A DNA stretch of 64,000 nucleotides from contig JAAYSF010000073.1 of the NCBI GenBank assembly GCA_012523975.1, positions 416 to 64,415 of the forward strand. The letters run 5' to 3'. Position 1 is the first letter of the stretch. Each line of letters opens with the position of its first letter. Origin of the DNA: Veillonellaceae bacterium (GTDB lineage: Bacteria; Bacillota; Negativicutes; JAAYSF01). Below are positions 2,860 through 24,242 of this stretch, piece by piece. A program made the translations under genes and the position numbers. The notes under the pieces are model-generated. The model searched no databases. It saw only the letters and a program-made list of their open reading frames with translations, and was not told the origin of the DNA.

Positions 2860-2880
2860 TGCGGGCTCTTTTTTGAGGTC
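2860..2880 (+). terminator. Intrinsic terminator (same gagcctgcgggctc hairpin + T-run)
   Basis: Hairpin plus TTTTTT immediately after the GNAT stop codon. Confidence 0.6.
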
Positions 2881-2987
2881 CTGTCGGCACTTTGACATAT
2901 TAAATAAATATAAGTACAATAAAACGAGAATTCACTGGATATCTATGGCAAGTAAATCAGGTTAAATTTTAATAGAAGGTGAAGTTT

Positions 2988-3389: not shown

Positions 3390-3436
3390 ATATGATGTTC
3401 ATTGAAAAGAGACACTAAGATACAGGGGGCGGCAGT

Positions 3437-4243
3437 ATGGGAAATAATGCGCCAATAGGGGTGTTTGACTCTGGGATCGGCGGGCTGACCGTAATGAAAG
3501 AATTGATTAATTTACTGCCAGGCGAGAATTTTATTTATTTTGGCGATACGGCTCGGGTGCCGTATGGATCGCGGCCTCCGGCAGAAATAAAGGAATTTAC
3601 CGATGATATAATGCGATTTTTATCAGCGCAGGACATAAAAATGGTTGTAATGGCTTGCAATGCTATGACCTCAGTTAGTTATGAGTTTGTTAAGGAGAAA
3701 TACAAACTTCCTACTGTTGGCGTTAATCGCGGCCTAGAAAGGGCAATTAAGCTAAGCACTACCAAAAAAATTGGGGTTATTGGCACGGTTGCAACAGTTA
3801 CCAGCCGCTTACATGAAAAGGAGTTATTCATACAGGATTCAAATGCTAAGATTTACGCGGTTGGGTGTCCCCAATTAGTGCCGTTGATTGAGAGCGGAAT
3901 TTTAGAGGGACCGCAGATTGAGGAAGCTGCTGCTGAATATCTCCTACCGCTAAAGCAGGCAGGGGTAGATGTTATAATACTGGCATGCACCCATTATCCA
4001 TTTATTACGGAGGTTATCAGCCGTTTCATGGGCAAGGGTACGGCTATTATAAACCCGGCTTGTGAAACAGCTCAGGACGCTTGGGAAATCTTGAAAAAAT
4101 CTGATCAGCTGGCGGCTAGAGGGCAAGGTTCAGTAGAATTATGCTTTTCGTCCGACCTTGAACAAGCCGCACGGATGGCAGGACATCTATTTGATACTAC
4201 AGCTGTTAGCTTTAGGTTGGTCAATCTGCAAGATTTTCGTTAA
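3437..4243 (+). CDS. murI: Glutamate racemase
   Basis: GVFDSGIGGLTV and ACTHYP motifs, with the paired catalytic Cys regions. Confidence 0.9.
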   Translation: MGNNAPIGVFDSGIGGLTVMKELINLLPGENFIYFGDTARVPYGSRPPAEIKEFTDDIMRFLSAQDIKMVVMACNAMTSVSYEFVKEKYKLPTVGVNRGLERAIKLSTTKKIGVIGTVATVTSRLHEKELFIQDSNAKIYAVGCPQLVPLIESGILEGPQIEEAAAEYLLPLKQAGVDVIILACTHYPFITEVISRFMGKGTAIINPACETAQDAWEILKKSDQLAARGQGSVELCFSSDLEQAARMAGHLFDTTAVSFRLVNLQDFR

Positions 4244-4318
4244 AGACCTAGAAAATTTGGGGAATTTTTGGTATAATTCTTAGTTGTAGTTTATATTGGT
4301 GTATATGGAGGATTTGTC

Positions 4319-4852: not shown

Positions 4853-4874
4853 AATCGGTGCAGGAGGTAGTGTC

Positions 4875-5549
4875 ATGGCAGAATTAGAACTTAAACCGGT
4901 ACGTACCCGGATTTTAACTCCAGAAGATAACATTGTTGACGCAATTATAGAATATGCCCAAGATGATATTGGTCCCGATGATATTGTGTCGGTAGCAGAA
5001 AGTGTTGTTGCAATTACACAGGGGCAGGCTACTAGACCGGAAGAATTAAAACCGTCTTTTTTAGCTAAGGTTATGTGCCGGTTTGTACCGCAGAAGGGCA
5101 GTTTATCTAGCTGTTACGGCATGCAGGCCGCAATTAATGCAGAGGGTCAATGGCGGGTGTTTTTTGCCATGATTATGGGCTTTTTAGCTAAGATTATTGG
5201 TAAAGACGGCGTCTTTTACGAACTGGCCGGCAGACAAGCGGCCCTGATTGATGATGTTACCGGTACAATGCCGCCGTTTGATAAACATATTGTATACGGT
5301 CCGGACAATCCTAACGGAGTAGCTGAAGAGATCAAAAGCCGCTTGGGATGTTTTGGCGCAGCGGTTGCCGATGTTAATGACCTTAAACGGGCTGCAGTGC
5401 TGGGGATTTCATCTGGTTTGGACCCCGAAAGGTTGGCGCAGATCCTCATTGATAATCCCTTTGGCAATGCTTCTCAGAGGACGCCTATCGTTATTATCAA
5501 AAATTATGGAAAAGTTGAGGCAGCAGCACAGGCTAAAGCTTTGGGTTAA
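4875..5549 (+). CDS. CofE-like (F420-0:gamma-glutamyl ligase family, COG1478-like) protein of unknown function
   Basis: LKPVRTRILTPEDNIVDAII...DIVSVAESVV resembles the CofE-family N-terminus. Assignment is from memory of the family pattern. Confidence 0.4.
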   Translation: MAELELKPVRTRILTPEDNIVDAIIEYAQDDIGPDDIVSVAESVVAITQGQATRPEELKPSFLAKVMCRFVPQKGSLSSCYGMQAAINAEGQWRVFFAMIMGFLAKIIGKDGVFYELAGRQAALIDDVTGTMPPFDKHIVYGPDNPNGVAEEIKSRLGCFGAAVADVNDLKRAAVLGISSGLDPERLAQILIDNPFGNASQRTPIVIIKNYGKVEAAAQAKALG

Positions 5550-5625
5550 ATGACTACGTAAGAGGATAGAATAACACTATCCTCTTTATTGTTTAAACTA
5601 GAAGATTGCAAGGAGGCAGTAATAC

Positions 5626-6603
5626 GTGGCCCGCATTGGAATAACAACTACGGTGCCGGTTGAAATAATTTTGGCCGCCGGTCATATTCCTATAGATATT
5701 AATAATATTTTTATTGGGGACGAAGGCGCGCAGCGGCATGTGCAGGCTGCCGAGGACGCCGGTTATCCTCGAAATATCTGCGGCTGGATAAAGGGGTTAT
5801 ATTCTGTTGTTGTAAACAGTCCTGATATAGACAAAGTGCTAGCCGTTACTCAAGGCGACTGCAGTAATACTCATGCTCTGATGGAAACTTTTGAACATGC
5901 CGGTATTAGTACAATACCGTTTGCTTATCCATTTGACCGGGATTATGACCTTTTAAAACTTCAGATGGAAAAGCTTATGAAAGTCCTTGGAACCGACTGG
6001 GACGCTGTCCAAAAGACAAAGCAGCGTTTGGATAAAGTAAGGGCCAAAGTTAGAGAAATCGACCGCCTCACTTGGGAGGAAAACACTGTAAGCGGGTTTC
6101 ACAATCACCTGTATCAAGTATCGTGCAGTGATTTTAATGGTGATGTGGAAACCTTTGAAAAAGATGTTGATACATTTATTGTTAAGGCCGAAGCTGGAGA
6201 TGAGTTTAATGAAGAGCTCCGAATTGGTTACATAGGCGTACCGCCAATTTTTACTGACCTTTACCCCTATCTTGAACAAATGGGGGCTAGGGTGGTATTT
6301 AACGAGGTGCAGCGGCAATTCGCAATGCCGAATGAGGTTGAGGACGTGGTTGAACAATATCGGCTATACACATATCCGTACGGTGTTTTTGGCCGGATAG
6401 ACGACATTCGTAAAGAAGCTGAGAGGCGTAACCTTGATGGAATCATTCATTATGTTCAAAGTTTCTGTTTCAGACAAATTGAGGATATGATTCTTCGCGA
6501 ACGTTTAGATATCCCTATTCTGACAATCGAAGGTGACAAGCCGGGCAAGCTTGACGCGCGGACGCGGCTTAGAATTGATAGTTTCTTAGAAATGCTCCGG
6601 TGA
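5626..6603 (+). CDS. 2-hydroxyacyl-CoA dehydratase family protein (HgdB / D-component-like)
   Basis: Conserved Cys-containing motifs (NICGW, QGDCSNTHAL). Adjacent activase gene, as in hgd/had/bcr clusters. Confidence 0.5.
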   Translation: MARIGITTTVPVEIILAAGHIPIDINNIFIGDEGAQRHVQAAEDAGYPRNICGWIKGLYSVVVNSPDIDKVLAVTQGDCSNTHALMETFEHAGISTIPFAYPFDRDYDLLKLQMEKLMKVLGTDWDAVQKTKQRLDKVRAKVREIDRLTWEENTVSGFHNHLYQVSCSDFNGDVETFEKDVDTFIVKAEAGDEFNEELRIGYIGVPPIFTDLYPYLEQMGARVVFNEVQRQFAMPNEVEDVVEQYRLYTYPYGVFGRIDDIRKEAERRNLDGIIHYVQSFCFRQIEDMILRERLDIPILTIEGDKPGKLDARTRLRIDSFLEMLR

Positions 6604-6612
6604 GGTGATTAG

Positions 6613-7377
6613 ATGAGATGCGGGATTGATTTAGGCAGTCGCAGCGTAAAATTGGTAGTAATGGACGGCGAAGAAATAAAGTTTGAAAAAGTTTATGAAA
6701 CCGTTGAATTTTATCGTAATTTTGGTCGACGAACCGACGAGGGTATGGTAGTCGACTTTGCTGCGCTTGAAATAGGTGAGGTAACGCAAGTTACGGCTAC
6801 CGGTTATGGCCGAAATACTATTGATATTGTCGGCGCGACAGTTATTGCGGAGCTCAAAGCCCATACTGCAGGTGCTATCTGGCAGACCGGCCTAGAAGAT
6901 TTCACTTTGCTGGATCTAGGCGGGCAGGATAGCAAGGTAATTAAAGTGCGCAAGGGCAAAATGGTAGGCTTTGAAACTAATGATAAATGTGCTGCGAGTA
7001 CAGGCCGCTACTTGGAAAACATGGCAACTGTTCTGGGAATCAGTTTAGCCGAAATGAGCAGCTATAGTGAAAACCCGGTCGAATTGAATGCCACTTGCGC
7101 AATCTTTGGTGAGTCAGAACTTATCGGCCGAATTGTTGAGGGTCATAGTATTTCGGCATTAGCTGCCGGTGTCAACTATACCATTTTTAAGCGGATTAGA
7201 CCGATGCTGACGGCTCTGGCGAGCGAGACTATAATATTTACAGGTGGGGTTGCCTTGGGTAAGGCTATTCGCGAACTGATTGAGCGCGAACTCCAAGTTA
7301 AGGTGGTTGTGCCGAAACATCCGCAATTGAATGGAGCAATCGGCTGTGCAGTATATCAAGCGAAAAAGAGGCGATAA
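6613..7377 (+). CDS. CoA-substrate-specific enzyme activase (BadF/BadG/BcrA/BcrD ATPase family, HgdC-like)
   Basis: N-terminal GIDLGSRSVK ASKHA phosphate-1 motif. About 254 aa, typical of [4Fe-4S] activases. Confidence 0.7.
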   Translation: MRCGIDLGSRSVKLVVMDGEEIKFEKVYETVEFYRNFGRRTDEGMVVDFAALEIGEVTQVTATGYGRNTIDIVGATVIAELKAHTAGAIWQTGLEDFTLLDLGGQDSKVIKVRKGKMVGFETNDKCAASTGRYLENMATVLGISLAEMSSYSENPVELNATCAIFGESELIGRIVEGHSISALAAGVNYTIFKRIRPMLTALASETIIFTGGVALGKAIRELIERELQVKVVVPKHPQLNGAIGCAVYQAKKRR

Positions 7378-7379
7378 AT

Positions 7380-9056
7380 GTGCTGCTGGGGATTGATGTG
7401 GGGGGGACTTTTACTGATGCTGTAATTATTGCATCGGGCAGGATATTGGCTAGCGCTAAGAGGCAAACTACGCATCACGACCTTCTGGAAGGTATTTTAA
7501 ATGTCCTTGATGATATACTTCCGGCTATTGACCAGTCAAAGCTTAAAAGGGTAGCTCTTTCTACAACTATTGTCACAAATGCGTTAATCGAAGGCCGGAT
7601 TGAAAAGGTGGGGCTGTGTCTTGTTCCCGGACCAGGGTTTGACACTAGCAAAATTATTCCCGCTCCGGCCTTTATATTGTCTGGTTATATCGATCATCGC
7701 GGTCGGGAAGTAAAAAAAATCGAAAAGTCCGAAATCCAGGATTTTTGCAGGCGCAGCGCCGATATCGACGTATATGCCGTTGTCGGTAAGTTTGCAGTGC
7801 GGAATCCTAAACACGAGACACTGATGGCTGAATGGATAAAAGATGAAGCTAAACCAAGCCATATAACAATCGGGTCGGCAGTTTCGGGCAGTCTTAATTT
7901 TTGGCGGCGGACTAACTCAGCCTATTTTAATGCGGCCGTTTGGAGGCAGTTTAGCAATTTTTCTGCGGCCGTTGAACGGGCGTTGTTGCAAAGAAAGATT
8001 AGTGCGCCGGTTTACATATTAAAGGCCGATGGGGGAACGATGCCGCTGACGGCAGCCAAAACCCTACCTGTAGAGGCGGTTTTCACTGGGCCGGCTGCAA
8101 GTGTTTTAGGTATTATGGCAATGTATAATTCAGATCGTCCAGCAGTATCGGTAGATATCGGCGGGACGACAACCGATATTGCCCTTTGGGAAAATGGCAA
8201 GCCGTTATTTTCATCACGCGGCGCAATGATAAAAGGCTTTCCCACCTCTATTCGTTCGCTTCGCCTGAAGTCAGTTGGAATAGGCGGCGATAGCTTTATT
8301 TGGCGTGAGAATGGTGAATTAAGAGTCGGGCCAATGCGAAAAGGTCCGGCTATGGCAGCCGGCGGGAACTGGCCAGCTTTATCTGACGCCATGATTGTGG
8401 CAGGTTTGGCTAGGTTTGGCGACAAAAATAGAGCCCTTCAGGCTATTTCTCAAGTAGCTTTACCAGGGCAGTCGCTAACTGACGCTGCCTGGGCGGTGCT
8501 GAATACTGCAGCTGAAATTGTCAAAAAAGCTATCAATGATATGATTGACGAGCAAGCTGCTGAGCCTGTTTACCGGGTTGAGGATGTTATAAAAGCTGCT
8601 CGGTTTAAACCTGAGACCCTGATTGGAGTAGGCGGCGCAGCTGGCGGTCTGTCGCCTGTTATCGCCAAGCAATTCGGGATTCCTTGCCAAGTGCCAAACG
8701 GCGCAATGGTAGCAAACGCAGTCGGAGCCGCGGTTGCGCGCCCGACAATTGATATTACGCTCCGTGCTGATACTGCTGAAGGCTATTATTCGGTAGCTGA
8801 ACTTGGTGTTAAGCAAGCTCTCGCCAACCGCAGGCTAAGTCTTTCGGACGCCTATCAATTAGCCGTTAAATATTTGCAAGAGCGGGCTCGCCAGGTCGGG
8901 ATAGACGCCTCAGATGTTGAGGTTGTTCAACAGGAAGAGTTTAATTTAGTGAGAGGTTTTAACTCGACTGGTAAGATAATTAGCTCTCGTGTCCAAATTA
9001 AACCAGGTGTACTTATGCCAATTGATGATAGCGGGGCAAAGGGGGTATTGGAATGA
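7380..9056 (+). CDS. Hydantoinase/oxoprolinase (HyuA N-terminal-like) family protein
   Basis: LLGIDVGGTFTDAV start and internal DIGGTTTD motif typical of hydantoinase A-type ASKHA ATPases. Confidence 0.6.
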   Translation: MLLGIDVGGTFTDAVIIASGRILASAKRQTTHHDLLEGILNVLDDILPAIDQSKLKRVALSTTIVTNALIEGRIEKVGLCLVPGPGFDTSKIIPAPAFILSGYIDHRGREVKKIEKSEIQDFCRRSADIDVYAVVGKFAVRNPKHETLMAEWIKDEAKPSHITIGSAVSGSLNFWRRTNSAYFNAAVWRQFSNFSAAVERALLQRKISAPVYILKADGGTMPLTAAKTLPVEAVFTGPAASVLGIMAMYNSDRPAVSVDIGGTTTDIALWENGKPLFSSRGAMIKGFPTSIRSLRLKSVGIGGDSFIWRENGELRVGPMRKGPAMAAGGNWPALSDAMIVAGLARFGDKNRALQAISQVALPGQSLTDAAWAVLNTAAEIVKKAINDMIDEQAAEPVYRVEDVIKAARFKPETLIGVGGAAGGLSPVIAKQFGIPCQVPNGAMVANAVGAAVARPTIDITLRADTAEGYYSVAELGVKQALANRRLSLSDAYQLAVKYLQERARQVGIDASDVEVVQQEEFNLVRGFNSTGKIISSRVQIKPGVLMPIDDSGAKGVLE

Positions 9057-10375
9057 CTGCCAAAAAACCGCTTGGTCTGGTGTTTTTCCCGGCCTTTGAC
9101 TGGGCAATAACGCCAACTCATCCCGAACGTCAGGAAAGACTCTTATATACGCGTGATCAGATTGTGGAAGAGGGTCTTTTAGACATGCCTGAAATCTGCG
9201 AGTATAGACCGCGGCTGGCCACGTATCAAGATATTGAGCGAGTTCATCTCGGAGTGCCTGATATAGCCTCTTTAATTACCGATGCTCACTTAGTGTCGGC
9301 AGGCGGGGCAATTACGGCAGCCGAGGCTGTATTGAAGGGCGAGGTGGCCCGCTCTTTTGCTTTAGTGAGACCTCCCGGTCATCATGCCATGAAGGTTGTA
9401 CACGGCACGCGGGGTTTTTGCACAATAAATATTGAAGCAATTATGGTGGAATACTTACGTAAATACTATGGCATTAAGAAGGTCGCCATTGTTGACACTG
9501 ATGTTCATCATGGGGACGGGACCCAAGATATTTTTTATCATGATCCTGATACGTTATTTATTTCATTTCATCAGGATGGTCGTACATTATATCCTGGAAC
9601 AGGTTTTATGGATGAGATGGGCAGCCCTAACGCCTATTGCTCTAATATTAATATTCCGCTGCCGCCTGGGACAACTGACCAAGGTCTTCATTATGTACTT
9701 GACAATCTAATTGTGCCGATGTTAGCTGATTTCAAACCTGATCTCGTAATTAACTCAGCCGGGCAGGACAACCATTACAGCGATCCTTTAGCCAATATGG
9801 CTATAACTGCCCAAGGTTATGCCCGGTTGGCCGATAAGCTTAAGGCCGATATCGCCGTTTTAGAAGGTGGGTATTCGATTGAAGATGCCTTGCCCTATGT
9901 TAATGTTGGCATTATTTTGGCGATGGCTAATTTGGACTATCGAAAAGTTGTTGAACCGCATATTGAAGATTGCCCGAACCAAAGCGAAAAAACTACTTTG
10001 TATATTAGACAAATAGTCGATAAATGGCGCGGGATTTGGGCAGCCCGTGATTCTCTCAGGCGCGAAGCGATAGCGAAGGCTGGTGACTTCTGGGTCAGCC
10101 GGCGCGGCATATACTATGATGACAGCGGCATTAATGAGGAACGCCGTGAACGAGTGCGGGTGTGCCCGAAATGCTCTGGTTACTTCACTGTCGAGACAGA
10201 GGCCGAAGGATATGGTTTTGGGGCGAAGTCGGCATTTGCGGCTGTTGTTCCGCGGGATTCCTGCCCGCGTTGCAGAAAACAAGCCAAAGATGAAACGATT
10301 AAGGCAAGAAACCAGGGCCGCTATGGCCATTATTTTATCCAAGATAAGCAACAGGACGTTTTTGAGAAGTTATAG
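9053..10375 (+). CDS. Histone deacetylase/acetoin-utilization (AcuC/HDAC) family protein with C-terminal zinc-ribbon extension
   Basis: HHGDGTQDIFYHDPDTLFISFHQ catalytic-core motif. The C-terminal ~90 aa carry CPKCSG...CPRCRK. Confidence 0.7.
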   Translation: MTAKKPLGLVFFPAFDWAITPTHPERQERLLYTRDQIVEEGLLDMPEICEYRPRLATYQDIERVHLGVPDIASLITDAHLVSAGGAITAAEAVLKGEVARSFALVRPPGHHAMKVVHGTRGFCTINIEAIMVEYLRKYYGIKKVAIVDTDVHHGDGTQDIFYHDPDTLFISFHQDGRTLYPGTGFMDEMGSPNAYCSNINIPLPPGTTDQGLHYVLDNLIVPMLADFKPDLVINSAGQDNHYSDPLANMAITAQGYARLADKLKADIAVLEGGYSIEDALPYVNVGIILAMANLDYRKVVEPHIEDCPNQSEKTTLYIRQIVDKWRGIWAARDSLRREAIAKAGDFWVSRRGIYYDDSGINEERRERVRVCPKCSGYFTVETEAEGYGFGAKSAFAAVVPRDSCPRCRKQAKDETIKARNQGRYGHYFIQDKQQDVFEKL

Positions 10376-10404
10376 CGATAAGAAACAATACTTAGGAGGT
10401 AACC

Positions 10405-11148
10405 ATGACAAGAGTCGATGGACGCGATAAAGATGAACTGCGGAAAGTGAAAATAACACGCGATTATTTAAAATACGCTGAGGGGTCAGTTTTAATAGAA
10501 GTCGGCAATACAAAGGTTATTTGTGCGGCAACAATTGAAGACAAGGTACCGCATTTTTTGAAGGGTACTGGCGAAGGATGGATTACAGCTGAGTATTCAC
10601 TTCTGCCGCGGTCGACTCAGACGCGTAACGCCCGAGAGTCGGCGAAAGGCAAATTAACCGGCCGCACGCATGAAATTCAGCGGCTGATTGGCCGAGCGCT
10701 GCGCAGTGTTGTTGATTTGAAGGCGTTGGGGGAAAAGACTATCTGGATTGACTGTGATGTTGTTCAGGCTGATGGCGGGACAAGAACAGCTTCTATTACC
10801 GGAGCTTTTGTTGCCTTGGTTGATGCTGTCGATAAAATTTATTCAGATTCGGCCAAACCGTTCCCAGTTAAAGATTTTCTTGCGGCAATTAGTGTAGGAA
10901 TTGTCGGCGAAGATGCTGTGCTTGATTTATGCTATGAAGAAGACTCTAATGCTGTTGTAGATATGAATGTTGTCATGACGGGGTTTGGGCAATTTGTTGA
11001 GGTCCAAGGTACTGGTGAAAAGCACCCGTTTACCAGGAAGCAGTTTAATGACATGCTGGAGATTGGTGAAGCCGGTGTGAATAGACTGATTGACTATCAG
11101 AAAGATATTTTAGGACCGCTATCATGGAAGGTGGGGCGTGAAGGGTGA
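10405..11148 (+). CDS. rph: Ribonuclease PH
   Basis: Full-length match to RNase PH ([10 protein letters not shown]...[10 protein letters not shown]...). Confidence 0.9.
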
Positions 11149-11741
11149 TTGAGATAGTTATCGCCACTAAAAATGCCGGTAAGGTTGCTGAGTTTGCCGC
11201 TGCGTTGGCTGAATTGCCGGTGAAAGTTTTGTCGTTAACTGATTTTGGTGAAATTCCGGAAGCTGTTGAAGACGGTAGCACCTTTGCTGAGAACGCCGAA
11301 AAAAAAGCGCGTCATTACGCTCACCATACCGGCAAAGCATGCTTGGCTGATGACTCTGGGCTTGAGGTTGACGCTTTAGGAGGAGCGCCCGGCGTATATT
11401 CGGCGCGCTATGCTGGCGAGCATGCTACCGATTCGCTGAACAATATAAAGCTGCTCGATGAACTTATGAAAACAGGGAGTGATAATCGTTCCGGTCGATT
11501 TCGCTGCGCGTTGGCGTTTGCTGCCGACGATGGCAAAATCATTACTGCTGACGGAATATGTGAAGGTATTATTTTAGACAAGCCGCGCGGAAACGGCGGT
11601 TTTGGCTACGATCCGCTGTTTTATGTCCCACAATTCGGCAAAACATTTGCAGAACTTACTGTTGCTGAAAAAAACGTTATAAGTCATCGGGGTCTCGCCA
11701 TAAAAAATATGGCGGCCAAGCTGGTAGGATTTTTTAGATGA
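11145..11741 (+). CDS. rdgB: Non-canonical purine NTP pyrophosphatase (RdgB/HAM1 family)
   Basis: [13 protein letters not shown]...FGYDPLF motifs. Conserved rph-rdgB adjacency. Confidence 0.85.
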
Positions 11742-12214
11742 AGATCGGTGTTATTAGCGATACACATGGCAACATGACGGCGATAAAAAAGGCAGCTGAA
11801 GCGGCGGGGGCAGTTGACCTTTGGTTGCACTGCGGCGACTATAGCTGGGATAGCGATTACCTCAAGAGATTAACCGGTGTGCAGGTGATTGCAGCCAAGG
11901 GAAACTGTGATGGCGGTGCACCGACCAAGCTTGACGAATTTTTAAACCTCGAAGGACTGTCGATATGGCTGACACATGGACATCGCTACCATGTTAATCA
12001 AGGATTAGCGGAACTTCGATTTTGGGCAAGACAGTATGAGGCAGCTATCGTTGTTTTTGGTCACACTCACATTCCGGAATTAATAAAAGATGCTGAATCT
12101 TTACTGTTTAACCCCGGTAGCGCATCGCTGCCGTCTAATAATCAAAAGCCTACCTTTGGAATTATAACTATTGATGGAGATAATATTTCCGCCTGCCAAA
12201 TCGAATTACTATAG
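11738..12214 (+). CDS. Metallophosphoesterase (YfcE/MJ0936 family)
   Basis: GDTHG...GD...GN.D...GH.H metallophosphatase motifs. Confidence 0.75.
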   Translation: MKIGVISDTHGNMTAIKKAAEAAGAVDLWLHCGDYSWDSDYLKRLTGVQVIAAKGNCDGGAPTKLDEFLNLEGLSIWLTHGHRYHVNQGLAELRFWARQYEAAIVVFGHTHIPELIKDAESLLFNPGSASLPSNNQKPTFGIITIDGDNISACQIELL

Positions 12215-12307
12215 AAATAAGCGTCATAAAAGGCGCTTTTTTTTATGTAATGCATATATTGTATTGATGGCTGCAGCCGCAATATAAAGTATGAGGGGAG
12301 TCTGGAG

Positions 12308-12914: not shown

Positions 12915-13874
12915 ATGATTCTACAACGTTTTGGGATGCCCATATATCTTCAGGTGAAAAACTACATTCTGGAAAAGATAAAGGCGGGTGATTATAAACC
13001 TGGTTCCAAACTGCCTACCGAGCGGGATTTATCCGCTGAACTTGGTATAAGCCGGAATACAGTCAGTGCCGCCTATAAAGAGCTTTTAATGGAAGGCGTG
13101 CTTGAGGCTCGACAAGGCCGAGGGACGTTTGTTAAAGCTGTTGCAGACGATGATTTTCAAATAGACGCCGCCGGTAGTAAGCGGGAGCGACTACTCAGGC
13201 TAATTGACAATGCAATGGCGAAAGCGCAGGAATTGGGTTTTTCATTTGAACAGTTTGCTGCTATTGTCAGAATACGGGCTCAGGAAAAAGCTGTTGCAGT
13301 TCGCAGTATGCGCATAGCAGTTGTAGCTTGTGCCCCTGAACATGTGCATCACTATGTAAGTCAGATTGGTCAAACGGTCAATGTTAGTTTTGAAGAAATT
13401 AGTCTTCTGGAGTTGAGAACGGGAAAAGTTCCGGCAGAACTTCTGGTGGCATGCGATCTTGTTGTTACAGCAGTTGAACACAAATCTGAAGTAGCCGATT
13501 TAATGGGAGGAGATAAAACCAAGCTAATTACTGTAGCTGCCGTTCCGAACTTAGAAGCTGTTATTAAATTAGCGAGACTGGTAGTAGGAACAACAGTTGG
13601 AGTGGTTGCTGTCAGCAGTCATTATTTTGAATTATTTGAATCATTGCTGAGCAAGAATATGATTAGCGGGCTTAACCTTCAAGTTTGTTACTCCGATGAT
13701 CCCGAACAGCTACGGAAATTTATTGCGCAGCAAAGCGTTATAGTGGTGGCCGATGAACGCCAGAATGCTGTTCGACGATATGCGCAAGAAGGTCAGGATA
13801 TAATACCCTTCTATTATGAGATTGATCAGGGGTCTTTAAATCAGCTGCTGGCCAGATTGATTACGCCAGTATAA
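12915..13874 (+). CDS. GntR-family transcriptional regulator (N-terminal wHTH, unassigned C-terminal domain)
   Basis: DLSAELGISRNTVSAAYKEL wHTH signature. Sits directly upstream of the glutamate mutase operon. Confidence 0.75.
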   Translation: MILQRFGMPIYLQVKNYILEKIKAGDYKPGSKLPTERDLSAELGISRNTVSAAYKELLMEGVLEARQGRGTFVKAVADDDFQIDAAGSKRERLLRLIDNAMAKAQELGFSFEQFAAIVRIRAQEKAVAVRSMRIAVVACAPEHVHHYVSQIGQTVNVSFEEISLLELRTGKVPAELLVACDLVVTAVEHKSEVADLMGGDKTKLITVAAVPNLEAVIKLARLVVGTTVGVVAVSSHYFELFESLLSKNMISGLNLQVCYSDDPEQLRKFIAQQSVIVVADERQNAVRRYAQEGQDIIPFYYEIDQGSLNQLLARLITPV

Positions 13875-13961
13875 AGGGTAACCATAATACAAATGAATAT
13901 CATCAGTGTGGAATAAGCAGTGTGAACTGCCAATTTTTAAAATGCAAAGGGGTTTTAATAC

Positions 13962-14393
13962 ATGGAGAACAAGGTAAAAGTAGTTTTGGGTGTTATCGGT
14001 GCAGATTGTCACGCTGTAGGTAACAAAATTCTCAATCACGCTATTACCGCAGCGGGGTTTGAAGTGGTTAATCTGGGAGTTTTAGTGCCGCAGGAAGACT
14101 TTGTGAACGCTGCAATTGAAACTGATGCTAAAGCTATATTAGTAGCTTCGCTTTATGGACATGGTGAAATAGATTGCCGGGGACTTAGAGATCGCTGCCG
14201 TGAGGCTGGAATTGGCAATATTCTTCTCTATGTCGGCGGTAATCTTGTAGTTGGTAAAACTGATTTCGCCGAGGTTGAGAAAAAATTCACCGAAATGGGT
14301 TACGATAAGGTTTATGCGCCAGGTACACTGCCTGATCAAGTAACGGAAGATTTAAGAAGCGATCTTAAAAAGCGGGGGCTTTTAAGTGAATAA
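13962..14393 (+). CDS. glmS: Glutamate mutase (methylaspartate mutase) S subunit, B12-binding
   Basis: DxHxxG B12-binding motif ([10 protein letters not shown]). About 140 aa, as in C. tetanomorphum/cochlearium MutS. Confidence 0.9.
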
Positions 14394-15771
14394 TGTATTG
14401 CTCATTGATTTTGGCAGTACTTATACCAAAATCACGGCAGTAGATGTTGAGCGCGAGGCTATTTTGGGTACGGCCCGCGGGATAACAACAGTCGAAACTG
14501 ATATCATGGATGGCTTGAATCAGGCTCTTGAGGATTTATTCCAAAAAACCGGAAAGCTTGAATTCGTCAAAGTGCTAGGCTGTTCGAGTGCGGCCGGAGG
14601 ACTTAAAATGGTGGCCGTTGGTCTGGTGCCGGAACTCACGGCGGAAGCTGCAAAACGTGCAGCGCTAGGAGCAGGAGCAAAGATTCTCGGGGTATTTGGC
14701 AATGAGTTAAGTGAATATGAGATTGAAGAAATCGCGGCAATGAAACCTGATATTATCTTGCTGGCAGGTGGCACAGATGGCGGCAATAAAGAAGTCATTC
14801 TCCATAATGCCAATATGCTAAAAAACTTAGGCCAAGATGTGCCGATGGTAGTTGCCGGCAATAAATCGGTTACGCCGACGATAGTAAAGATTCTTTCTGA
14901 GACGATGACCGAAGTTCGTCATACTGAAAATGTCATGCCTAAGCTTAATGAATTAAATATCCAGCCGGCCCGGGAAACCATCCGCGAGATATTTTTGAAA
15001 CGAATTATCGCAGCCAAAGGGCTCAACCGAGCCAACAAGTTTGTCGATAAAATGGTCATGCCGACCCCGGCAGCCGTTCTTACGGCAGCTGAATTGCTGT
15101 CAATAGGCGGTCCGAATGAAACTGGGCTAGGCGATCTTATGGTAGTTGATATTGGTGGTGCAACAACGGATATATACTCGATAGCCAAGGGTGATCCGAC
15201 CAAAGCAAATGTTGCCCTGCGTGGTTTGCCTGAACCGTTTGCTAAGCGGACGGTAGAAGGTGACCTCGGGATGCGCTACAGTGCCGGAGCGCTGCTCAAG
15301 GCGGCCGGAGCTAATATAATTGCCGGCTATGCCGGGATACCGGAAGAAGAAGTTGTCCGATATGTCGATAAAGTAGCTCAAGAAATTGAGTACCTGCCGA
15401 AAGGCGAAAAGGAAGAAAAAACGGAAATTGCTATGGGGCGGGCCTGTACCAGTGTTAGCGCCGATCGTCACGCTGGTCACTTGGAGACAGTTTATACATT
15501 ATACGGCCCGGCGTTTGTTCAAGTTGGCAAAGATTTAACAGCCGTAAAGACAGTAGTCGGCACGGGTGGCGTAATTATCAATAATCCTCAACCTGAGGAG
15601 ATTCTCAGCGGTATAATGTTCGATCACTCTGTTCCGCATATTTTGAAACCGCAGGAACCTGAATATCTGATCGACAGCGATTATATCTTAGCGTCAATGG
15701 GTCTTTTAGGTGGAGAATATCCGGATTTAGCTGTTCGACTAATGAAAAAATATATTGTGCGGAGGGAATAA
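14386..15771 (+). CDS. glmL: Glutamate mutase accessory protein L (MutL/GlmL)
   Basis: Position between glmS and glmE. About 461 aa, ASKHA-like, [11 protein letters not shown]-terminus. Confidence 0.8.
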
Positions 15772-15773
15772 CA

Positions 15774-17225
15774 GTGGAATTAAAAAATAAAAAGTGGACG
15801 CATGCTGAATTTAATGCTGTGCGTGAAGAAGTACTTAAACAATGGCCTACCGGCGACGAAGTCAATTTTGAGGAAGCGGTAAAATATCATGAAACTATCC
15901 CGGCCAAGCGGCAGTTTGCAAAACGCTTAATAAAAGCTAAGAAAAATGGCGAAACGCTCACCCAGCCTAGAGCCGGTGTAGCTTTGATCAATGAACATAT
16001 CAATTTATTGAATTTCCTTCGCACTGAAGGTGAGGCTGATCTTTTGCCGACAACTATCGACAGTTACACCCGGCAAAATCAGTATAAAGAAGCCGAGAAC
16101 GGCATTGAAGAAAGTAAAAGGGCAGGGCGTTCGCTGCTAAACGGTTTTCCGGCCGTTAACCATGGGGTAAAAGGTGTCCGTCAAGTTGTAGAAAGTGTTG
16201 ATGCTCCGCTGCAAGTTCGTCATGGCACCCCTGATGCCCGTTTACTTACCGAAATAACGCTGGCCGGCGGTTACACCTCATATGAGGGCGGCGGAATTTC
16301 GTATAACATTCCGTATGCAAAGAGTGTATCACTGGAAAAAACAATTCTTGACTGGCAATATGCTGACCGTCTTGTCGGTTTGTATGCTGAGCATGGTATT
16401 GAGATCAACCGTGAACCGTTCGGGCCACTGACCGGCACTCTTGTTCCGCCCAGTATTTCCCATGCTATTGCTATTATCGAAGGGATGCTTGCGGCTGAAC
16501 AAGGTGTCAAAAATATAACTCTTGGTTACGGTCAATGCGGTAATTTAATTCAGGATGTTGCGGCTATCAAGTCGCTTGAGCAGCTGGCCGAAGAGTATTT
16601 TGCAAAGCATGGTTATAACGACTGTATTCTAACTACGGTCTTCCATCAGTGGATGGGCGGATTCCCGCAAGACGAGGCTAAAGCCTTTGCGGTAATTTCA
16701 TGGGGAGCGGCAGCGGCAGCTCTGTCCAAAGCAACTAAAGTAATTGTCAAAACTCCGCATGAAGCACTGGGGATTCCGACGAAAGAAGCTAATGCCCAGG
16801 GTCTCAGAGCTACCAAGCAAGCAATTAACATGCTGTTGGATCAGCCCTTCCCGATTACTAAGGAAGTTGAGCAGGAAATTGAAATTATTAAAGCAGAAAC
16901 GCGTTGTATTTTGGATAAAGTATTTGAACTAGGTAAGAACGACTATGCCATTGGAACTGTTAGAGCATTTCAGGCGGGCGTTCTTGATGTACCGTTTGCG
17001 CCAAGCAACTATACCCTCAACAAGATTTTACCGGCACGGGACAATACCGGCGCAGTAAGACTGTTTGATACCGGCAATCTGCCGTTCACCCAAGACCTTG
17101 TTGATTTTCATAAAATAAAAATGGATGAGCGCGCGAAAGCCGAAGGCCGCATCGCCAGTTTCCAAATGGTAATTGATGATATATATGCTATTTCAAAAGG
17201 CCGCCTTGTTGGCAGACCTAGATAA
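15774..17225 (+). CDS. glmE: Glutamate mutase (methylaspartate mutase) E subunit
   Basis: 483 aa TIM-barrel E subunit. Operon context glmS-L-E-mal. Confidence 0.85.
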
Positions 17226-17244
17226 TTAAGAGGAGATGTTCTTA

Positions 17245-18489
17245 ATGAAAATAAAAGACATTGTGTGTTCAAGAGGGCTAACAGGGTTTTATTTTGATGA
17301 CCAGCGGGCCATTAAAGCAGGTGCTGAGCATGATGGCTTCACATACATTGGCAATCCGGTCACTCCTAGCTTTCAGAAGGTGCGTCAAGCCGGCGAGTGT
17401 GTATCGGTGATGATTGTGCTTGAGGACGGACAGGTAGCTTATGGTGATTGCGCAGCTGTGCAATATAGCGGTGCCGGCGGGCGTGACCCATTGTTCTTGG
17501 CTGATGATTTTATTCCGGTTATCCAGCAAGAAATAAAGCCGCGGTTAGTTGGTCGTGAGCTCTCATCATTTAAAGCGCTGGCCGAAGAAATAGACAATAT
17601 GGTTGATTCGAAAACCGGCAAGCGCATTCATACTGCTCTGCGTTATGGTGTAACCCAGGCTATTCTTGATGCGGTAGCTAGAGCAAAACATAAATTGATG
17701 TGCGAAGTAATCGCTGAAGAATATAATACTCAAGTTAGTGACAAAGAGATTCCAGTCTTTACTCAATCAGGCGACGATCGTTATGATAACGCTGACAAGA
17801 TGATTATCAAAAAGGCTCAGGTACTGCCACATGCACTTATTAACCATGTAAAATCCAAGCTCGGCGATGACGGCAGCTTGCTGTTGGAATACGTTGAATG
17901 GTTAAAAAACCGCGTTTTGAAGCTTCGTACCGATGAAGACTACAACCCGGTGCTGCATATCGATGTCTATGGCACTATCGGCTTGGCATTTGACAATGAT
18001 ATTGCCAAAATTGTAGCCTATTTTGCAAAGTTAGAAAAAGCTGCTGCGCCTTTAAAGTTACGGATTGAAGGCCCTGTCGACGTTGAGGACCGCGACAAAC
18101 AAATTGCTATTTTGGCCGAGATTACCGAGCGTGTACATCAGGCTAATATTAAAGTTGAAATTGTCGCTGACGAATGGTGCAATACTTTTGAAGACATCAA
18201 ACTGTTTGCCGATAACCATGCGGGTGATATGCTGCAAATCAAAACGCCGGACCTTGGCGGTATAAACAATATTATTGAAGCCAATCTATATTGCAAACAA
18301 AAAGGTATTGGAGCCTACCAAGGCGGCACTTGCAATGAGACTGATCGTTCAGCACAAGTATGTGTACACATTGCAATGGCTACCCAGCCTGACCAAATGC
18401 TTGCCAAACCGGGCATGGGGGTAGACGAAGGATTAATGATTGTCTACAACGAAATGAACCGTATTCTGGCACTGCGTAAAGCTTATTAG
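17245..18489 (+). CDS. mal: 3-methylaspartate ammonia-lyase (beta-methylaspartase)
   Basis: MKIKDIVCSRGLTGFYFDDQ N-terminus. 413 aa enolase-superfamily enzyme. Confidence 0.9.
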   Translation: MKIKDIVCSRGLTGFYFDDQRAIKAGAEHDGFTYIGNPVTPSFQKVRQAGECVSVMIVLEDGQVAYGDCAAVQYSGAGGRDPLFLADDFIPVIQQEIKPRLVGRELSSFKALAEEIDNMVDSKTGKRIHTALRYGVTQAILDAVARAKHKLMCEVIAEEYNTQVSDKEIPVFTQSGDDRYDNADKMIIKKAQVLPHALINHVKSKLGDDGSLLLEYVEWLKNRVLKLRTDEDYNPVLHIDVYGTIGLAFDNDIAKIVAYFAKLEKAAAPLKLRIEGPVDVEDRDKQIAILAEITERVHQANIKVEIVADEWCNTFEDIKLFADNHAGDMLQIKTPDLGGINNIIEANLYCKQKGIGAYQGGTCNETDRSAQVCVHIAMATQPDQMLAKPGMGVDEGLMIVYNEMNRILALRKAY

Positions 18490-18529
18490 TTTTACAAGGC
18501 CGCAGCGGTGCAGATAATGGAGGTATAGT

Positions 18530-19462
18530 ATGAAACCAACAATTATTGAACAACTTATGTACGCCAGTTACTTTGCACCGCGGGGCCGTAATCGGATGTA
18601 TGTTCTTGGGCAGCAAATCAGTGAACGCTATTTATCACCGCTTGACAGACTGATAGGTGTCATTGGCGATGCGGGCGCAGGCAAATCATCGCTTATCAAA
18701 GGCATGTTTCCCGGCCTGGAACTAACTAATGATGATGACGGAGTAAATGTCAGACCGCTGCCGTTGCTTAAGAATGTTGATAAAGGTTTTTTTTCCAGCC
18801 ATTCGTATCATGTAGATATGAGATTTGAAATGGCTTTTACGCAACTGCATGTCTTGGCCGAGGCAGTAAAGCTGGCGCTCAAGAATAACAAGCGGGTCAT
18901 TGTTGAACACTTTGACCTGCTTTATCCTGCTTTAGGAATAAACGCCGAAGTTTTGATTGGGGTTGGCGGCGAAGTTATTGTTTCTCGTCCGACAGTCTTC
19001 GGACCTTTTCCGCAAGAAATCAAGGATGTTGTTGTAAAAACATTAAGGTACCGTAAAATGGCACATACTGCTGAGGACCTTACAAGTATGGTATTGACGA
19101 AAGACTATGGTGCCGGCCTACAATTTGGACATCGCGACGTTCATCACGGGTTTGTACTTGAGTATCCGGCTCTGATTGAGGCTGACCTTAACGAAGTTGA
19201 GAAGAAGGTAAACAAGATAATTGATGAGGGTATTAATGTATCATATTATGATGAGGGCCACATCAGAATTGGCGAGGATGTGTGGGATTGCTCAGGTCCT
19301 CGTACACATGTTAGAAACACTGAGAACATTGAGAACTTTCGTCTGTTCAAAGAATACAAGTTTGATCCAAAGGCCAATACGTTTCTTATTATCGGCCAAG
19401 TTGGACCGCTATCTGAAAATCTTGACGGGTTTGCCGGCGTAAGTTACGCTGTTTCGATATAA
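18530..19462 (+). CDS. P-loop NTPase-like protein of unknown function (uridine-kinase/PRK-like Walker A)
   Basis: GVIGDAGAGKSSL Walker A motif. Embedded between mal and the citramalate lyase genes. No confident family. Confidence 0.4.
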   Translation: MKPTIIEQLMYASYFAPRGRNRMYVLGQQISERYLSPLDRLIGVIGDAGAGKSSLIKGMFPGLELTNDDDGVNVRPLPLLKNVDKGFFSSHSYHVDMRFEMAFTQLHVLAEAVKLALKNNKRVIVEHFDLLYPALGINAEVLIGVGGEVIVSRPTVFGPFPQEIKDVVVKTLRYRKMAHTAEDLTSMVLTKDYGAGLQFGHRDVHHGFVLEYPALIEADLNEVEKKVNKIIDEGINVSYYDEGHIRIGEDVWDCSGPRTHVRNTENIENFRLFKEYKFDPKANTFLIIGQVGPLSENLDGFAGVSYAVSI

Positions 19463-19511
19463 TTTCCACAAATTGGAGTCAGCAGGACTGGCTCAAAGGG
19501 AGGCTTTAGGT

Positions 19512-19805
19512 TTGGGAATAATTTTAACGACTGCCCAGGCGGGCACCCTCGAATCAAGTGATATATTAGTTACTGTTTCCCCGCTTGCCGAAGGCTCCGG
19601 GACTGTTATTGAAATTGAAAGTATCGTGATGGCTCAATATGGCAGAGCTATTCGCCAAACCCTTGCTGGGGTTTTAGCTGAGCAGGGTATAGAAGACGTC
19701 TATCTGAAAGCAGTCGACAGAGGAGCTTTGGATTGTACCATTAAGGCACGTACTTTGGCAGCGCTTGGCAGGGCGGGCGCAGTGCTGAAGGGGGAGGTAC
19801 TGTAA
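19512..19805 (+). CDS. citD: Citrate/citramalate lyase acyl-carrier (gamma) subunit
   Basis: AGTLESSD prosthetic-group serine motif. Probable TTG start after an AAAGGGAGG RBS (the longer ORF opens at 19473). Confidence 0.8.
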   Translation: MGIILTTAQAGTLESSDILVTVSPLAEGSGTVIEIESIVMAQYGRAIRQTLAGVLAEQGIEDVYLKAVDRGALDCTIKARTLAALGRAGAVLKGEVL

Positions 19806-20680
19806 TGGATCTTAGAAGGACAATGCTGTTCATTCCGGGTAATAATCCCGGAATGCTGCAAAATGGCGGTGTGTTCGGCGCTGACTCGGTTATCTTAGAT
19901 GTCGAGGATGCGGTGGCTCCGGGCGAGAAAGATGCGGCGCGTCTATTGGTAGCCCATTCATTGCTTAATGTTAACTATGGGCGCAGCGAAACCGTTGTCC
20001 GGATAAATACCATAGACACTTTTGGCAAAGAAGATATAAGAACCCTTGTTCCGTGTCAGCCGGACCTGTTTCTGGTGCCCAAAGTAGAGTCGGCTGCAGA
20101 TATAAAAGCAGTGGTCTCCCTGATTGAAGCGGCTGAAAAGCCTGGTCAGAAACGGGTGAATTTGATTGCTTTGCTTGAAACGCCGCGTGGTATTGCCGAG
20201 GCGTATAATATTGCTAAGGCTGACGAACGCGTAGTCGCACTGGCCTTGGGTGCCGAGGATTATACGGCAGTGCTCGGCGCTAATCGTACAAAACAAGGAA
20301 CAGAGATATTCACAGCCCGCACGTTGATTGTAAATGCGGCGGCTGCGGCCGGCATCCAATCAATAGATACTCCGTACACCGATGCTAATGATGAGCAAGG
20401 ACTTTTAGAGGATACCGAGATGGCCAAACAACTTGGCTTTAAGGGTAAATTAGCTATAAATCCGCGGCAAATTGATATTATTCATGAGGTGTTTAATCCG
20501 ACTGAGCATGATATCGAATGGGCGGAGCGGGTTGTAGAGGCTATTCGGCTGGCCGAAGCCGAAGGCTCAGGCGTTGCATCACTTCACGGCAAAATGGTTG
20601 ATGCGCCTGTTGTTAATCGCGCAGAACGTATCCTATACTTAGCAAGGCTGTTGGGCTTGGTTAAGGAGGCTGAGATATGA
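19805..20680 (+). CDS. citE: Citrate/citramalate lyase beta subunit (citryl-CoA lyase, HpcH/HpaI aldolase fold)
   Basis: About 290 aa, CitE-like motifs. Operon position after citD. Confidence 0.85.
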   Translation: MDLRRTMLFIPGNNPGMLQNGGVFGADSVILDVEDAVAPGEKDAARLLVAHSLLNVNYGRSETVVRINTIDTFGKEDIRTLVPCQPDLFLVPKVESAADIKAVVSLIEAAEKPGQKRVNLIALLETPRGIAEAYNIAKADERVVALALGAEDYTAVLGANRTKQGTEIFTARTLIVNAAAAAGIQSIDTPYTDANDEQGLLEDTEMAKQLGFKGKLAINPRQIDIIHEVFNPTEHDIEWAERVVEAIRLAEAEGSGVASLHGKMVDAPVVNRAERILYLARLLGLVKEAEI

Positions 20681-22218: not shown

Positions 22219-22219
22219 T

Positions 22220-23272: not shown

Positions 23273-23388
23273 GATGCCGGCAACGGGAAAACTAAAGCTA
23301 ATAGCTAGATATTCTGGTTAAAAACTGGTTGTCAACCTATTTGGATTGTGCTAAAATTAACGTGAATGTGGGTAATAGGAGGTAAAAA

Positions 23389-24231: not shown

Positions 24232-24242
24232 GGAGGTGTAAA

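Follow-up and report, generated by a model that had tools for sequence, protein, structure and literature searches.

ATP-dependent activases serve proteins of the HGD-D type in several described systems. The 2-hydroxyacyl-CoA dehydratases HadBC and HgdAB, activated by HadI and HgdC, are heterodimers of paralogous subunits, one catalytic (α) and one supporting (β). DCCP, a single-gene protein with its own ATP-dependent reductase, DCCP-R (Carboxydothermus; 6eno, 7yyl), belongs to a group defined by a seven-cysteine motif, in which six cysteines ligate an [8Fe-9S] cluster (PMC7317905). The plasmalogen synthase PlsA/PlsR and the glycerol ester reductase Ger are members of the benzoyl-CoA reductase/2-hydroxyacyl-CoA dehydratase (BCR/HAD) superfamily that use non-CoA substrates (PMC9702350, PMC13159169), so this family is not limited to CoA esters; in these systems, two activase domains, DUF2229, and HGD-D pieces (BBDH...) are combined in one large protein or in two (PMC13159169). 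Here, we describe a locus in which genes for an HGD-D-like protein and an activase are flanked by a gene for a CofE-like protein on one side and by genes for a hydantoinase-A-like ATPase and a histone deacetylase (HDAC)-type hydrolase on the other. The five genes occupy positions 4875 to 10375 of a 64,000-nucleotide stretch from the metagenome-assembled genome of a Sporomusaceae-type Negativicute, labeled “Veillonellaceae bacterium” (assembly GCA_012523975.1, contig JAAYSF010000073.1, positions 416 to 64,415 of the forward strand), which is referred to as the window throughout.

An earlier note on this DNA had proposed the five open reading frames (ORFs) and assigned them to families from the sequence. 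These assignments were borne out, as Pfam F420_ligase, HGD-D, BcrAD_BadFG, Hydantoinase_A, and Hist_deacetyl all match (coordinates in Table 1). The note recognized no described pathway, and our literature search likewise found none for the gene combination and no published function for any of its parts. The locus is an undescribed mosaic of known enzyme superfamilies in new partnerships. It divides into module A (HGD-D-like protein and activase, 5626–7377), module B (ATPase and HDAC-type protein, 7380–10375), and module C (a small membrane protein and the CofE-fold protein, 4319–5549). We favor, with moderate confidence, the reading that the mosaic is lineage specific, three independently conserved modules having been juxtaposed by Sporomusales-type Negativicutes in an old Firmicute murI … rph-rdgB-yfcE neighborhood. 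To read the five genes as one pathway accounts less well for what was found. What the data show are the fold and family of every protein, the conservation of catalytic and ligand residues, and the limits and separate distributions of the modules; the chemistry of each module and any substrate are predictions. The leads that we rank highest are an orphan pair of HGD-D-like protein and activase (“archerase”), an ATPase pair in which an HDAC-type protein stands in for HyuB, and a CofE-fold enzyme associated with peptidoglycan genes.

The distributions that separate the modules come from a comparison of 170 related loci in total. A scan for module A, using one genome per species, returned at least 589 species-level genomes with a close relative of the HGD-D-like protein, and the best 80 loci were examined for their neighborhood. 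The scan for module B was run on metagenomes, with an alignment of this HDAC subfamily as the query, and gave at least 519 relatives, of which the best 80 were examined; these are full length, share 60 to 86% identity with the Moorella protein, and range in GC content from 29 to 66%. Large protein searches yielded partly only close Negativicute relatives (at least 73% identity) and say little on distribution. All three modules occur together only in Sporomusales-type loci (L001–L009 and L013–L015). In the Selenomonadales locus L010, genes of the CofE-like, HGD-D, and activase types are present and those of the hydantoinase-A-like and HDAC types are missing; Moorellaceae have modules B and C, with A not nearby; and most other lineages carry A, B, or C alone at a given locus. 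Co-occurrence of the five genes across genomes had been proposed in the earlier note as a test, and the result went against a single co-evolving pathway: the full set is found only in Sporomusales-type Negativicutes (nine GTDB species loci and Sporomusa ovata), and elsewhere there are three modules. Some taxon labels of metagenome-assembled genomes (MAGs) look wrong. L009, labeled “Patescibacteria group”, holds a typical Sporomusaceae-type locus, and the CofE-like protein of L091, labeled “Armatimonadetes”, is 85% identical to that of the Bacillota MAG L042, with which it shares the Firmicute gene order.

The HGD-D-like protein of module A scores 136.7 bits against PF06050. Its only conserved cysteines are C52, C79, and C281, each present in more than 90% of 77 diverse family members. 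A profile of the family finds DCCP (E 7e-22), HadC (E 5e-17), and BzdN, and the three cysteines align with the cluster cysteines of these proteins. An AlphaFold2 (AF2) model (predicted local distance difference test score, pLDDT, 80) was compared with solved structures by Foldseek, which returned HadC (3o3n_B; template modeling [TM] score 0.74, E 2.5e-13), HadB (TM 0.72–0.73), and DCCP (TM 0.73–0.77). The protein is thus predicted to bind a [4Fe-4S] cluster by three cysteines, with one iron left open. The activase matches BcrAD_BadFG (121 bits) and TIGR00241 (186.4 bits against a cut-off of 125.4), keeps the ASKHA phosphate motifs, and has two cysteines, C126 and C162, that are invariant in 53 of 53 homologs; this pair is predicted to hold a subunit-bridging [4Fe-4S] cluster. 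Like the partners in the HgdC/HadI and DCCP-R systems, these two proteins clearly function as a pair. The earlier note had remarked that only one dehydratase-like subunit, a short one, accompanies the HgdC-type activase, and this holds for the whole 64-kb window, where one of each is encoded and no second HGD-D-like or activase gene was found.

With HadBC/HadI and HgdAB/HgdC, module A shares the HGD-D fold of two Rossmann-like domains, the three HadC-aligned cysteines, and the dedicated two-cysteine activase. It differs from them in having one subunit gene instead of two; among the neighborhoods examined in 80 related loci, a second HGD-D-like ORF is present in L075 only. At 325 amino acids (aa) versus ~375 to 420 aa, the protein is also shorter and comes closest to the noncatalytic β-type subunits. 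Between 941 and 12745 in the window, there is no CoA-transferase or ligase gene, and the neighbors encoded there are a rubrerythrin, a GNAT acetyltransferase, a 4HBT thioesterase, MurI, RNase PH, RdgB, YfcE, and an RDD protein. Module A further differs from the dehydratases in that it also occurs in nonfermenting anaerobes such as Geobacteraceae and Syntrophomonas. DCCP/DCCP-R provides the best sequence match among solved structures and the same gene architecture of a single-gene protein with its own ATP-dependent reductase. Membership in the DCCP group was rejected, however, since the seven-cysteine motif is absent, three cysteines are conserved, and the NF040772 score is 46.1 bits versus a cut-off of 350; the module A protein is, moreover, ~95 residues shorter. 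Identity with PlsA/PlsR or Ger was likewise rejected, as module A has just one activase (254 aa) and one HGD-D protein (325 aa) and lacks DUF2229.

Module A is most likely an ATP-driven electron-injection [4Fe-4S] enzyme with three cysteine ligands, resembling HadC and DCCP. By analogy with these systems, electron transfer in module A would be driven by ATP: the activase would use ATP hydrolysis to drive a low-potential electron out of its bridging [4Fe-4S] cluster and into that of its partner, a single-gene, presumably homodimeric HadC/DCCP-like protein that holds the cluster on three cysteines. A substrate oxygen could then coordinate to the free iron, and an elimination or reduction of the ketyl type would follow. 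As to substrates, the neighborhoods point most often to the metabolism of glutamate, D-glutamate, or a C5-dicarboxylate. If found, the substrate would add a new reaction to the small set of ATP-driven ketyl-radical conversions, which comprises the dehydratases, the benzoyl-CoA reductases, the plasmalogen/ether synthases, and DCCP. The combination of a single-subunit, three-cysteine HGD-D protein with an archerase is present in at least 589 species of strict anaerobes, among them Geobacteraceae, Syntrophomonas, Desulfotomaculia, and Negativicutes.

The activase gene adjoins the HGD-D-like gene in 58 of 75 assessable loci, and at least eight representatives of the family are single-chain fusions of HGD-D and BcrAD. 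In most of the 80 species loci, the pair stands apart from modules B and C; such loci come from Desulfotomaculia, Peptococcia, Syntrophomonadia, Heliobacteria, Thermoanaerobacteraceae, and Geobacteraceae. Glutamate or D-glutamate is its most frequent association. In 37 of 72 assessable loci, the glutamate racemase gene murI is found no more than 1.6 kb upstream of the HGD-D-like gene, in 32 of 46 it is present somewhere in the upstream flank, and at least one gene of the methylaspartate pathway is present in 25 of 80 module A loci. In Firmicutes, the backbone reads Amidase_3 – murI – HGD-D – activase – (RNase-Z-like metallo-β-lactamase [MBL]) – rph – rdgB – yfcE, the last three genes following the HGD-D locus in most cases, and in Geobacteraceae, where murI is a divergent neighbor, genes for a Germane-domain protein and a short MetH lie next to it. 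In Desulfitobacteriaceae, the pair lies inside the methylaspartate cluster, with gntR-glmS-glmL-glmE-MAL (MAL, methylaspartate ammonia-lyase) on one side and genes for an Fe-S hydrolyase (fumAB) and citramalate lyase (citDEFC) on the other, and Fe-S hydrolyase α/β genes stand directly 3′ of the pair in ~10 further loci (Syntrophomonadaceae, Heliobacteriaceae, and others). Clusters of this kind were drawn with “MurI” and “HgdBC” by Kronen & Berg 2015 (PMC4682846), who assigned them no function. The pair as mesaconase of the methylaspartate pathway is unlikely, since the window and many other loci also carry the usual Fe-S hydrolyase α/β genes.

Some module A loci depart from this arrangement. 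In the Armatimonadota loci L059, L064, L077, and L082, the HGD-D-like gene follows queD and a queE-like radical SAM gene and has no activase gene adjacent; genes for MTHFR and a stand-alone homocysteine S-methyltransferase lie in between. In the Thermodesulfobacteriota locus L075 (2292–6824), a radical SAM/SPASM gene and a second HGD-D/DUF2229-like ORF come before the HGD-D-like gene and a gene for RtcA comes after it, so that L075 is possibly a heterodimeric variant. An MBL gene follows the HGD-D-like gene, with no activase gene, in loci of the Desulforudis, Ammonifex, and Peptococcaceae type (L049, L050, L051, L056, L066, L042, and L091); in these, the activase must be encoded elsewhere or the protein must be reduced otherwise. 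Genes for an AtuA-like protein and a DUF4387 protein come right after the HGD-D/activase pair in L011 (4791–6492) and L012 (11958–13656), and directly after the HGD-D-like gene in L046 (9319–10976), where no activase was detected.

Module B joins an ATPase of the hydantoinase-A type to a zinc hydrolase of the HDAC type. The ATPase contains Hydant_A_N (PF05378, 107 bits) and Hydantoinase_A (PF01968, 148 bits), and its best relatives in the PDB are N-methylhydantoinase, 5-oxoprolinase, and acetophenone carboxylase α/γ. Its motifs DxGGTxTD, DIGGTxTD, and GGxA are conserved, in Moorella as well, and its equivalog scores are far under their cut-offs. A close paralogy with the GlmL protein of the window was rejected, as tblastn gave no match at E < 0.01 and there was only a weak N-terminal MutL match. 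The HDAC-type protein scores 234.9 bits against PF00850, with HDAC6, HDAH, and APAH as the closest solved relatives. Residues H110, H111, D148, D150, H152, D239, and Y273 are invariant, in agreement with the alignment to HDAC6. The zinc-ribbon tail proposed in the earlier note is real: C371, C374, C404, and C407 are invariant in 10 of 10 Negativicute homologs and are also present in the Moorella proteins. No NCBIfam model matches the HDAC-type protein, and database sources name it only “histone deacetylase” or “AcuC-like”.

Of the 80 metagenome loci, 74 have the ATPase gene next to the HDAC gene on its upstream side; most commonly, the two overlap by 4 nucleotides (nt), as in the window. Beyond this pair, any given gene family is found in at most 13 of the best 80 loci. 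Hence, module B is a self-contained and widespread two-gene unit. Modules A and C are not nearby in these loci, except for C in the Moorella-like contig L092. The source names include Syntrophales, Syntrophobacteraceae, and Deltaproteobacteria, and Moorella is also represented. The unit is widespread in syntrophic Deltaproteobacteria-type lineages and in Firmicutes. Orthologs in Moorella thermoacetica and Neomoorella glycerini (56% and 40% identity) include the tail and have the same overlapping arrangement.

In comparison with the HyuA/HyuB enzymes (5-oxoprolinase, N-methylhydantoinase, caprolactamase, and acetophenone carboxylase), the ATPase retains the two HyuA domains, and its ASKHA nucleotide motifs are intact, but it is shorter (558 aa versus ~690 aa) and, in the window as in the 74 loci, is accompanied by a translationally coupled HDAC-type zinc hydrolase instead of HyuB. 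The hydrolase, for its part, has the complete HH dyad, D-x-H and D zinc ligands, and GGY tyrosine of class II HDACs (HDAC6, HDAH, APAH, and AcuC), from which it differs by a conserved N-terminal motif, LGLVFFPAFDWAI, by a 140-aa tail with the Cys4 zinc ribbon, and by its obligate pairing with an ASKHA ATPase. The HDAC-type protein stands in the position of HyuB in oxoprolinase, hydantoinase, and caprolactamase systems, and we infer that module B carries out ATP-assisted hydrolysis of an N-acyl, amide, or lactam bond. This suggests a new design of ATP-dependent amidohydrolase, with an HDAC-type zinc hydrolase replacing HyuB.

The CofE-like protein of module C reaches 36.8 bits against PF01996 (cut-off 25), over the N-terminal two thirds of the model only. 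The CofE equivalogs fail (NF009809, 21.5 versus 274 bits; TIGR01916, 17.5 versus 180.65), and the protein is not an F420 enzyme; the earlier note had remarked on the non-F420 context. Its AF2 model (pLDDT 80) has significant PDB matches only to Archaeoglobus fulgidus CofE (2phn, 2g9i, and 7uld), at E ~1e-6, TM ~0.55, and 15 to 18% identity over the full length (Foldseek), and a profile search of the subfamily against the PDB CofE gave E 0.16 only. D126, D127, D166, and N168 are invariant within the subfamily. The likeness to the F420-0:γ-glutamyl ligase CofE, then, lies in the fold over the whole length and in a Pfam score above the gathering threshold, whereas the low identity, the equivalog failure, and the conserved partner, which is a small membrane protein in Negativicutes and a peptidoglycan amidase elsewhere, set it apart. 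The protein is predicted to be a nucleoside triphosphate (NTP)-dependent carboxylate-amine ligase and not an ortholog of the F420 CofE. Its hosts are not known to be F420 producers.

In Negativicutes, the partner is the 177-aa membrane protein, which has no match in Pfam, NCBIfam, or PADLOC and whose homologs are encoded directly upstream of the CofE-like gene in 10 of 10 loci assessed. Elsewhere, this position is taken by the N-acetylmuramoyl (MurNAc)-L-Ala amidase Amidase_3, encoded upstream on the same strand in 8 of 8 non-Negativicute contexts and overlapping or abutting the CofE-like gene in six. Members of the CofE-like subfamily are common in Desulfotomaculum and in Moorella, Desulfofundulus, Ammonifex, Thermanaeromonas, and Pelotomaculum; in the latter five, orthologs at 43 to 46% identity are coupled to Amidase_3. 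Further neighbors are Amj, MurJ, MurT/GatD, L,D-transpeptidase, PBP5, and Ddl, and a gene for a pyruvoyl arginine decarboxylase is directly downstream in three contexts. The loci L042 (15890–17916), L087 (7032–9143), and L091 (6970–9107) show one conserved string of genes for Amj (a lipid II flippase), the CofE-like protein, and the pyruvoyl-dependent arginine decarboxylase, preceded by two Amidase_3 genes and an L,D-transpeptidase gene, which links an agmatine-forming enzyme with cell-wall genes. The best inference is that module C activates a carboxylate with NTP and forms an amide bond on a cell-wall-related molecule rather than on F420, an instance of the CofE fold used outside F420 biosynthesis and tied to cell-wall genes. 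For all three modules, the annotations “F420 ligase”, “2-hydroxyglutaryl-CoA dehydratase”, “hydantoinase”, and “histone deacetylase” mislead.

Several points weigh against the lineage-specific mosaic or against the glutamate association of module A. The C–A–B order is identical across Sporomusales genera (Sporomusa, Pelosinus, Dendrosporobacter, and others), so selection may keep the modules together there. B and C are divergent neighbors in Moorellaceae, a second independent juxtaposition, which hints at a functional link between these two. A and C are found at separate sites in Desulfofundulus (L036/L087), Pelotomaculum (L020/L086), and Ammonifex (L060/L085) and are 4 to 6 kb apart in L042 and L091. 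Homologs were called by tblastn at E < 1e-5, so that divergent partners can be missed, and what the locus comparison measures is adjacency rather than genome-wide co-occurrence. The glutamate link could be inherited Firmicute gene order and not function, because the association lies largely inside one phylum; beyond the Firmicutes, module A is found in other company, with queD/queE and MTHFR genes in Armatimonadota and with rtcA in a single Thermodesulfobacteriota locus.

The shared order in Sporomusales-type loci is also what would be expected if the five, really six, genes formed one pathway on a single N-acyl or amide substrate, in which the ligase or amidohydrolase would prepare the substrate and the ATP-activated radical enzyme would dehydrate or reduce it. 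The genes are tightly packed (gaps of 76, 9, 2, and −4 nt), keep the same order and content in all these loci, and have murI as a neighbor and a glutamate fermentation operon at a distance of 2.5 kb, and B and C are neighbors in Moorellaceae too. Yet every module is far commoner alone than in combination, the Selenomonadales locus does without module B, Moorellaceae have no module A near B and C, a conserved terminator-like hairpin separates the CofE-like and HGD-D genes, and no CoA-transferase or CoA-ligase gene is there to feed a classical 2-hydroxyacyl-CoA dehydratase. We regard one common pathway as improbable. Of the radical chemistry that the earlier note had suggested, the part that is sound is at the family level, for module A; one N-acyl or amide substrate for all five genes was not supported. 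A looser link between the modules, which we consider unlikely, would be a shared theme, the turnover or modification of the D-glutamate-containing stem peptide of peptidoglycan. The MurNAc-lactyl or D-Glu carboxylate would be the target of the amidase and the CofE-like ligase, the HDAC-like/ATPase pair would hydrolyze an amide, the HGD-D/activase pair would perform a radical step on a D-configured 2-substituted acid, and MurI and the methylaspartate pathway would dispose of the glutamate. The coupling of CofE-like genes to Amidase_3, among genes for Amj, MurJ, MurT, YkuD, PBP5, and Ddl, argues for such a theme, as do the Firmicute backbone Amidase_3 – murI – HGD-D – activase, the adjacency of B and C in Moorellaceae, and the murI and Germane genes that adjoin the HGD-D operon in Geobacteraceae. 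It is at odds with the ~70 diverse module B loci that show no cell-wall neighbors, with the company of queD/queE and folate genes that module A keeps in Armatimonadota, and with peptidoglycan chemistry itself, in which no known reaction needs a ketyl radical; in addition, no signal peptide is evident in the ~300-aa amidases from Moorella and L042.

A more specific version of the peptidoglycan theme, which taken as a whole is very unlikely, makes the CofE-fold ligase a new cytoplasmic peptidoglycan-modifying enzyme. The ligase would activate a carboxylate of lipid II or of the muropeptide stem (D-Glu α- or MurNAc lactyl), which would then be amidated; the amine could be agmatine, putrescine, or cadaverine, for example. 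In Negativicutes, it would be the genetically unidentified enzyme for the polyamine-modified peptidoglycan that tethers the outer membrane via OmpM, and in Sporomusales modules A and B would serve the same D-glutamate/cell-wall process. The idea of a polyamine ligase is attractive because Negativicutes bear polyamines on the D-Glu α-carboxylate of their peptidoglycan (PMC10628300). A different proposal concerns module A and departs from glutamate-derived acids: the HGD-D/activase pair might serve nucleic-acid/7-deazaguanine chemistry (it could, e.g., be an epoxyqueuosine reductase of a third kind) or might reactivate cobalamin enzymes by reduction. In 4 of 4 Armatimonadota loci, the HGD-D-like gene comes directly after queD (TIGR03367 above cut-off) and a queE-like gene; RNase-Z-like MBL, rph, and rdgB genes follow it in Firmicutes and rtcA in L075; B12 enzymes recur nearby, as in the glutamate mutase clusters and the S-methyl_trans/MTHFR genes of Armatimonadota; and a short MetH without a reactivation domain is encoded near the pair in Geobacteraceae. 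Each of these associations, however, belongs to a single lineage and may simply reflect inherited gene order, the rph, rdgB, and yfcE genes form an old housekeeping block that is present without the pair too, and our literature search found no paper that links the pair with queuosine or cobalamin roles. We would give such a role little credence. The juxtaposition of three separately conserved modules remains the reading that we prefer.

The physical layout of the locus is summarized in Table 1.

Table 1. Features of the locus and its surroundings, in window coordinates
Feature	Position	Strand	Basis
murI (glutamate racemase)	3437..4243	+	TIGR00067, 223.8 bits versus cut-off 146.65
Promoter-like site TAGAAA-17-TATAAT with extended TG, upstream of the 177-aa ORF	4249..4277	+	Consensus scan, 10/12 matches, weak
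Module C gene 1, 177-aa protein with N-terminal transmembrane helix	4319..4852	+	No family match
Module C gene 2, divergent CofE-fold protein	4875..5549	+	PF01996 and AF2 model
Terminator-like or attenuator hairpin, boundary of modules C and A	5560..5586	+	Scan, 10-bp stem then U-run
Module A gene 1, HGD-D-type protein, 325 aa, minimal domain	5626..6603	+	PF06050
Module A gene 2, HgdC/HadI-type activase (“archerase”), 254 aa	6613..7377	+	TIGR00241, BcrAD_BadFG
Module B gene 1, hydantoinase-A/oxoprolinase-A-type ASKHA ATPase, 558 aa	7380..9056	+	PF05378 and PF01968
Module B gene 2, class-II HDAC/APAH-type zinc amidohydrolase with C-terminal extension	9053..10375	+	PF00850
Cys4 zinc ribbon in HDAC tail, C371-x2-C374 ... 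C404-x2-C407	10163..10273	+	Cys conservation
rph (RNase PH), rdgB (XTP/dITP diphosphatase), yfcE-type phosphodiesterase	10405..12214	+	TIGR01966, 377 bits; NF011397, 261 bits; TIGR00040, 105 bits
Terminator-like hairpin with U8 run after yfcE	12219..12238	+	Consensus scan
Complete methylaspartate-pathway (glutamate fermentation) operon	12915..24803	+	NCBIfam equivalogs, tblastn

The gaps between the first four of the five genes are 76, 9, and 2 nt, and the final pair overlaps by 4 nt. The earlier note had the overlap right and each gap one too high (77, 10, and 3), because the gaps had been computed as start minus end. Its conclusion that the genes form one transcription unit was not confirmed as stated, on account of a conserved hairpin between modules C and A, an extra gene upstream, and a continuation through yfcE. 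The hairpin, with a 10-bp stem and a U-run (AAGAGGATAG...CTATCCTCTT), lies in the 76-nt gap, the sole sizeable one. Its stem (GAGGATAG...CTATCCTC) is nearly unchanged at the matching intergenic position in L001, L004, L005, L006, L009, and L010, and it is conserved in at least six related genera, including Sporomusa, Pelosinus, and Dendrosporobacter. An Rfam scan of positions 3000 to 14000 found no riboswitch or known RNA element and left the hairpin unmatched, with one chance miRNA match only. Only ~40 nt separate the hairpin from the next start codon in the window, which leaves little space for a promoter, and the hairpin may be an attenuator rather than a plain terminator.

Upstream, the 177-aa ORF ends 22 nt before the CofE-like gene. 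Downstream, rph starts 29 nt after the HDAC gene and is followed by two 4-nt overlaps through rdgB and yfcE, and the first terminator-like site after the HDAC gene is the one at 12219–12238; rph-rdgB-yfcE are probably in the same transcript as the HDAC gene. Because of the conserved hairpin, the upstream 177-aa ORF, and the packed rph-rdgB-yfcE genes with the terminator at 12219, a layout of two units, 4319–5549 and 5626–12214, is likely, with possible read-through of the hairpin.

The methylaspartate operon begins 2.5 kb from the five-gene locus and contains gntR, glmS, glmL, glmE, the methylaspartate ammonia-lyase gene, an AlaX-like gene, citD/E/F, citC, and Fe-S hydrolyase α/β genes of the mesaconase type. 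GlmS, GlmL, GlmE, MAL, CitC, and the hydrolyase subunits exceed their NCBIfam equivalog cut-offs, and citD/E/F were seen by tblastn. The AlaX-like gene, between those for methylaspartase and CitD, encodes a 310-aa protein (18530–19462) with a faint AlaX/tRNA_SAD-like match. Relatives of this uncharacterized protein recur in other Firmicutes between the MBL gene and rph (L044, 12574–13542; L011; L012). A role of the locus as an anti-phage defense system was rejected, as PADLOC gave no defense match for any of the six proteins. Before murI, at 941 to 3389, the window encodes the rubrerythrin, the GNAT acetyltransferase (372 aa), and the 4HBT thioesterase; in Sporomusa ovata, a thioesterase gene instead of murI immediately precedes the module C genes.

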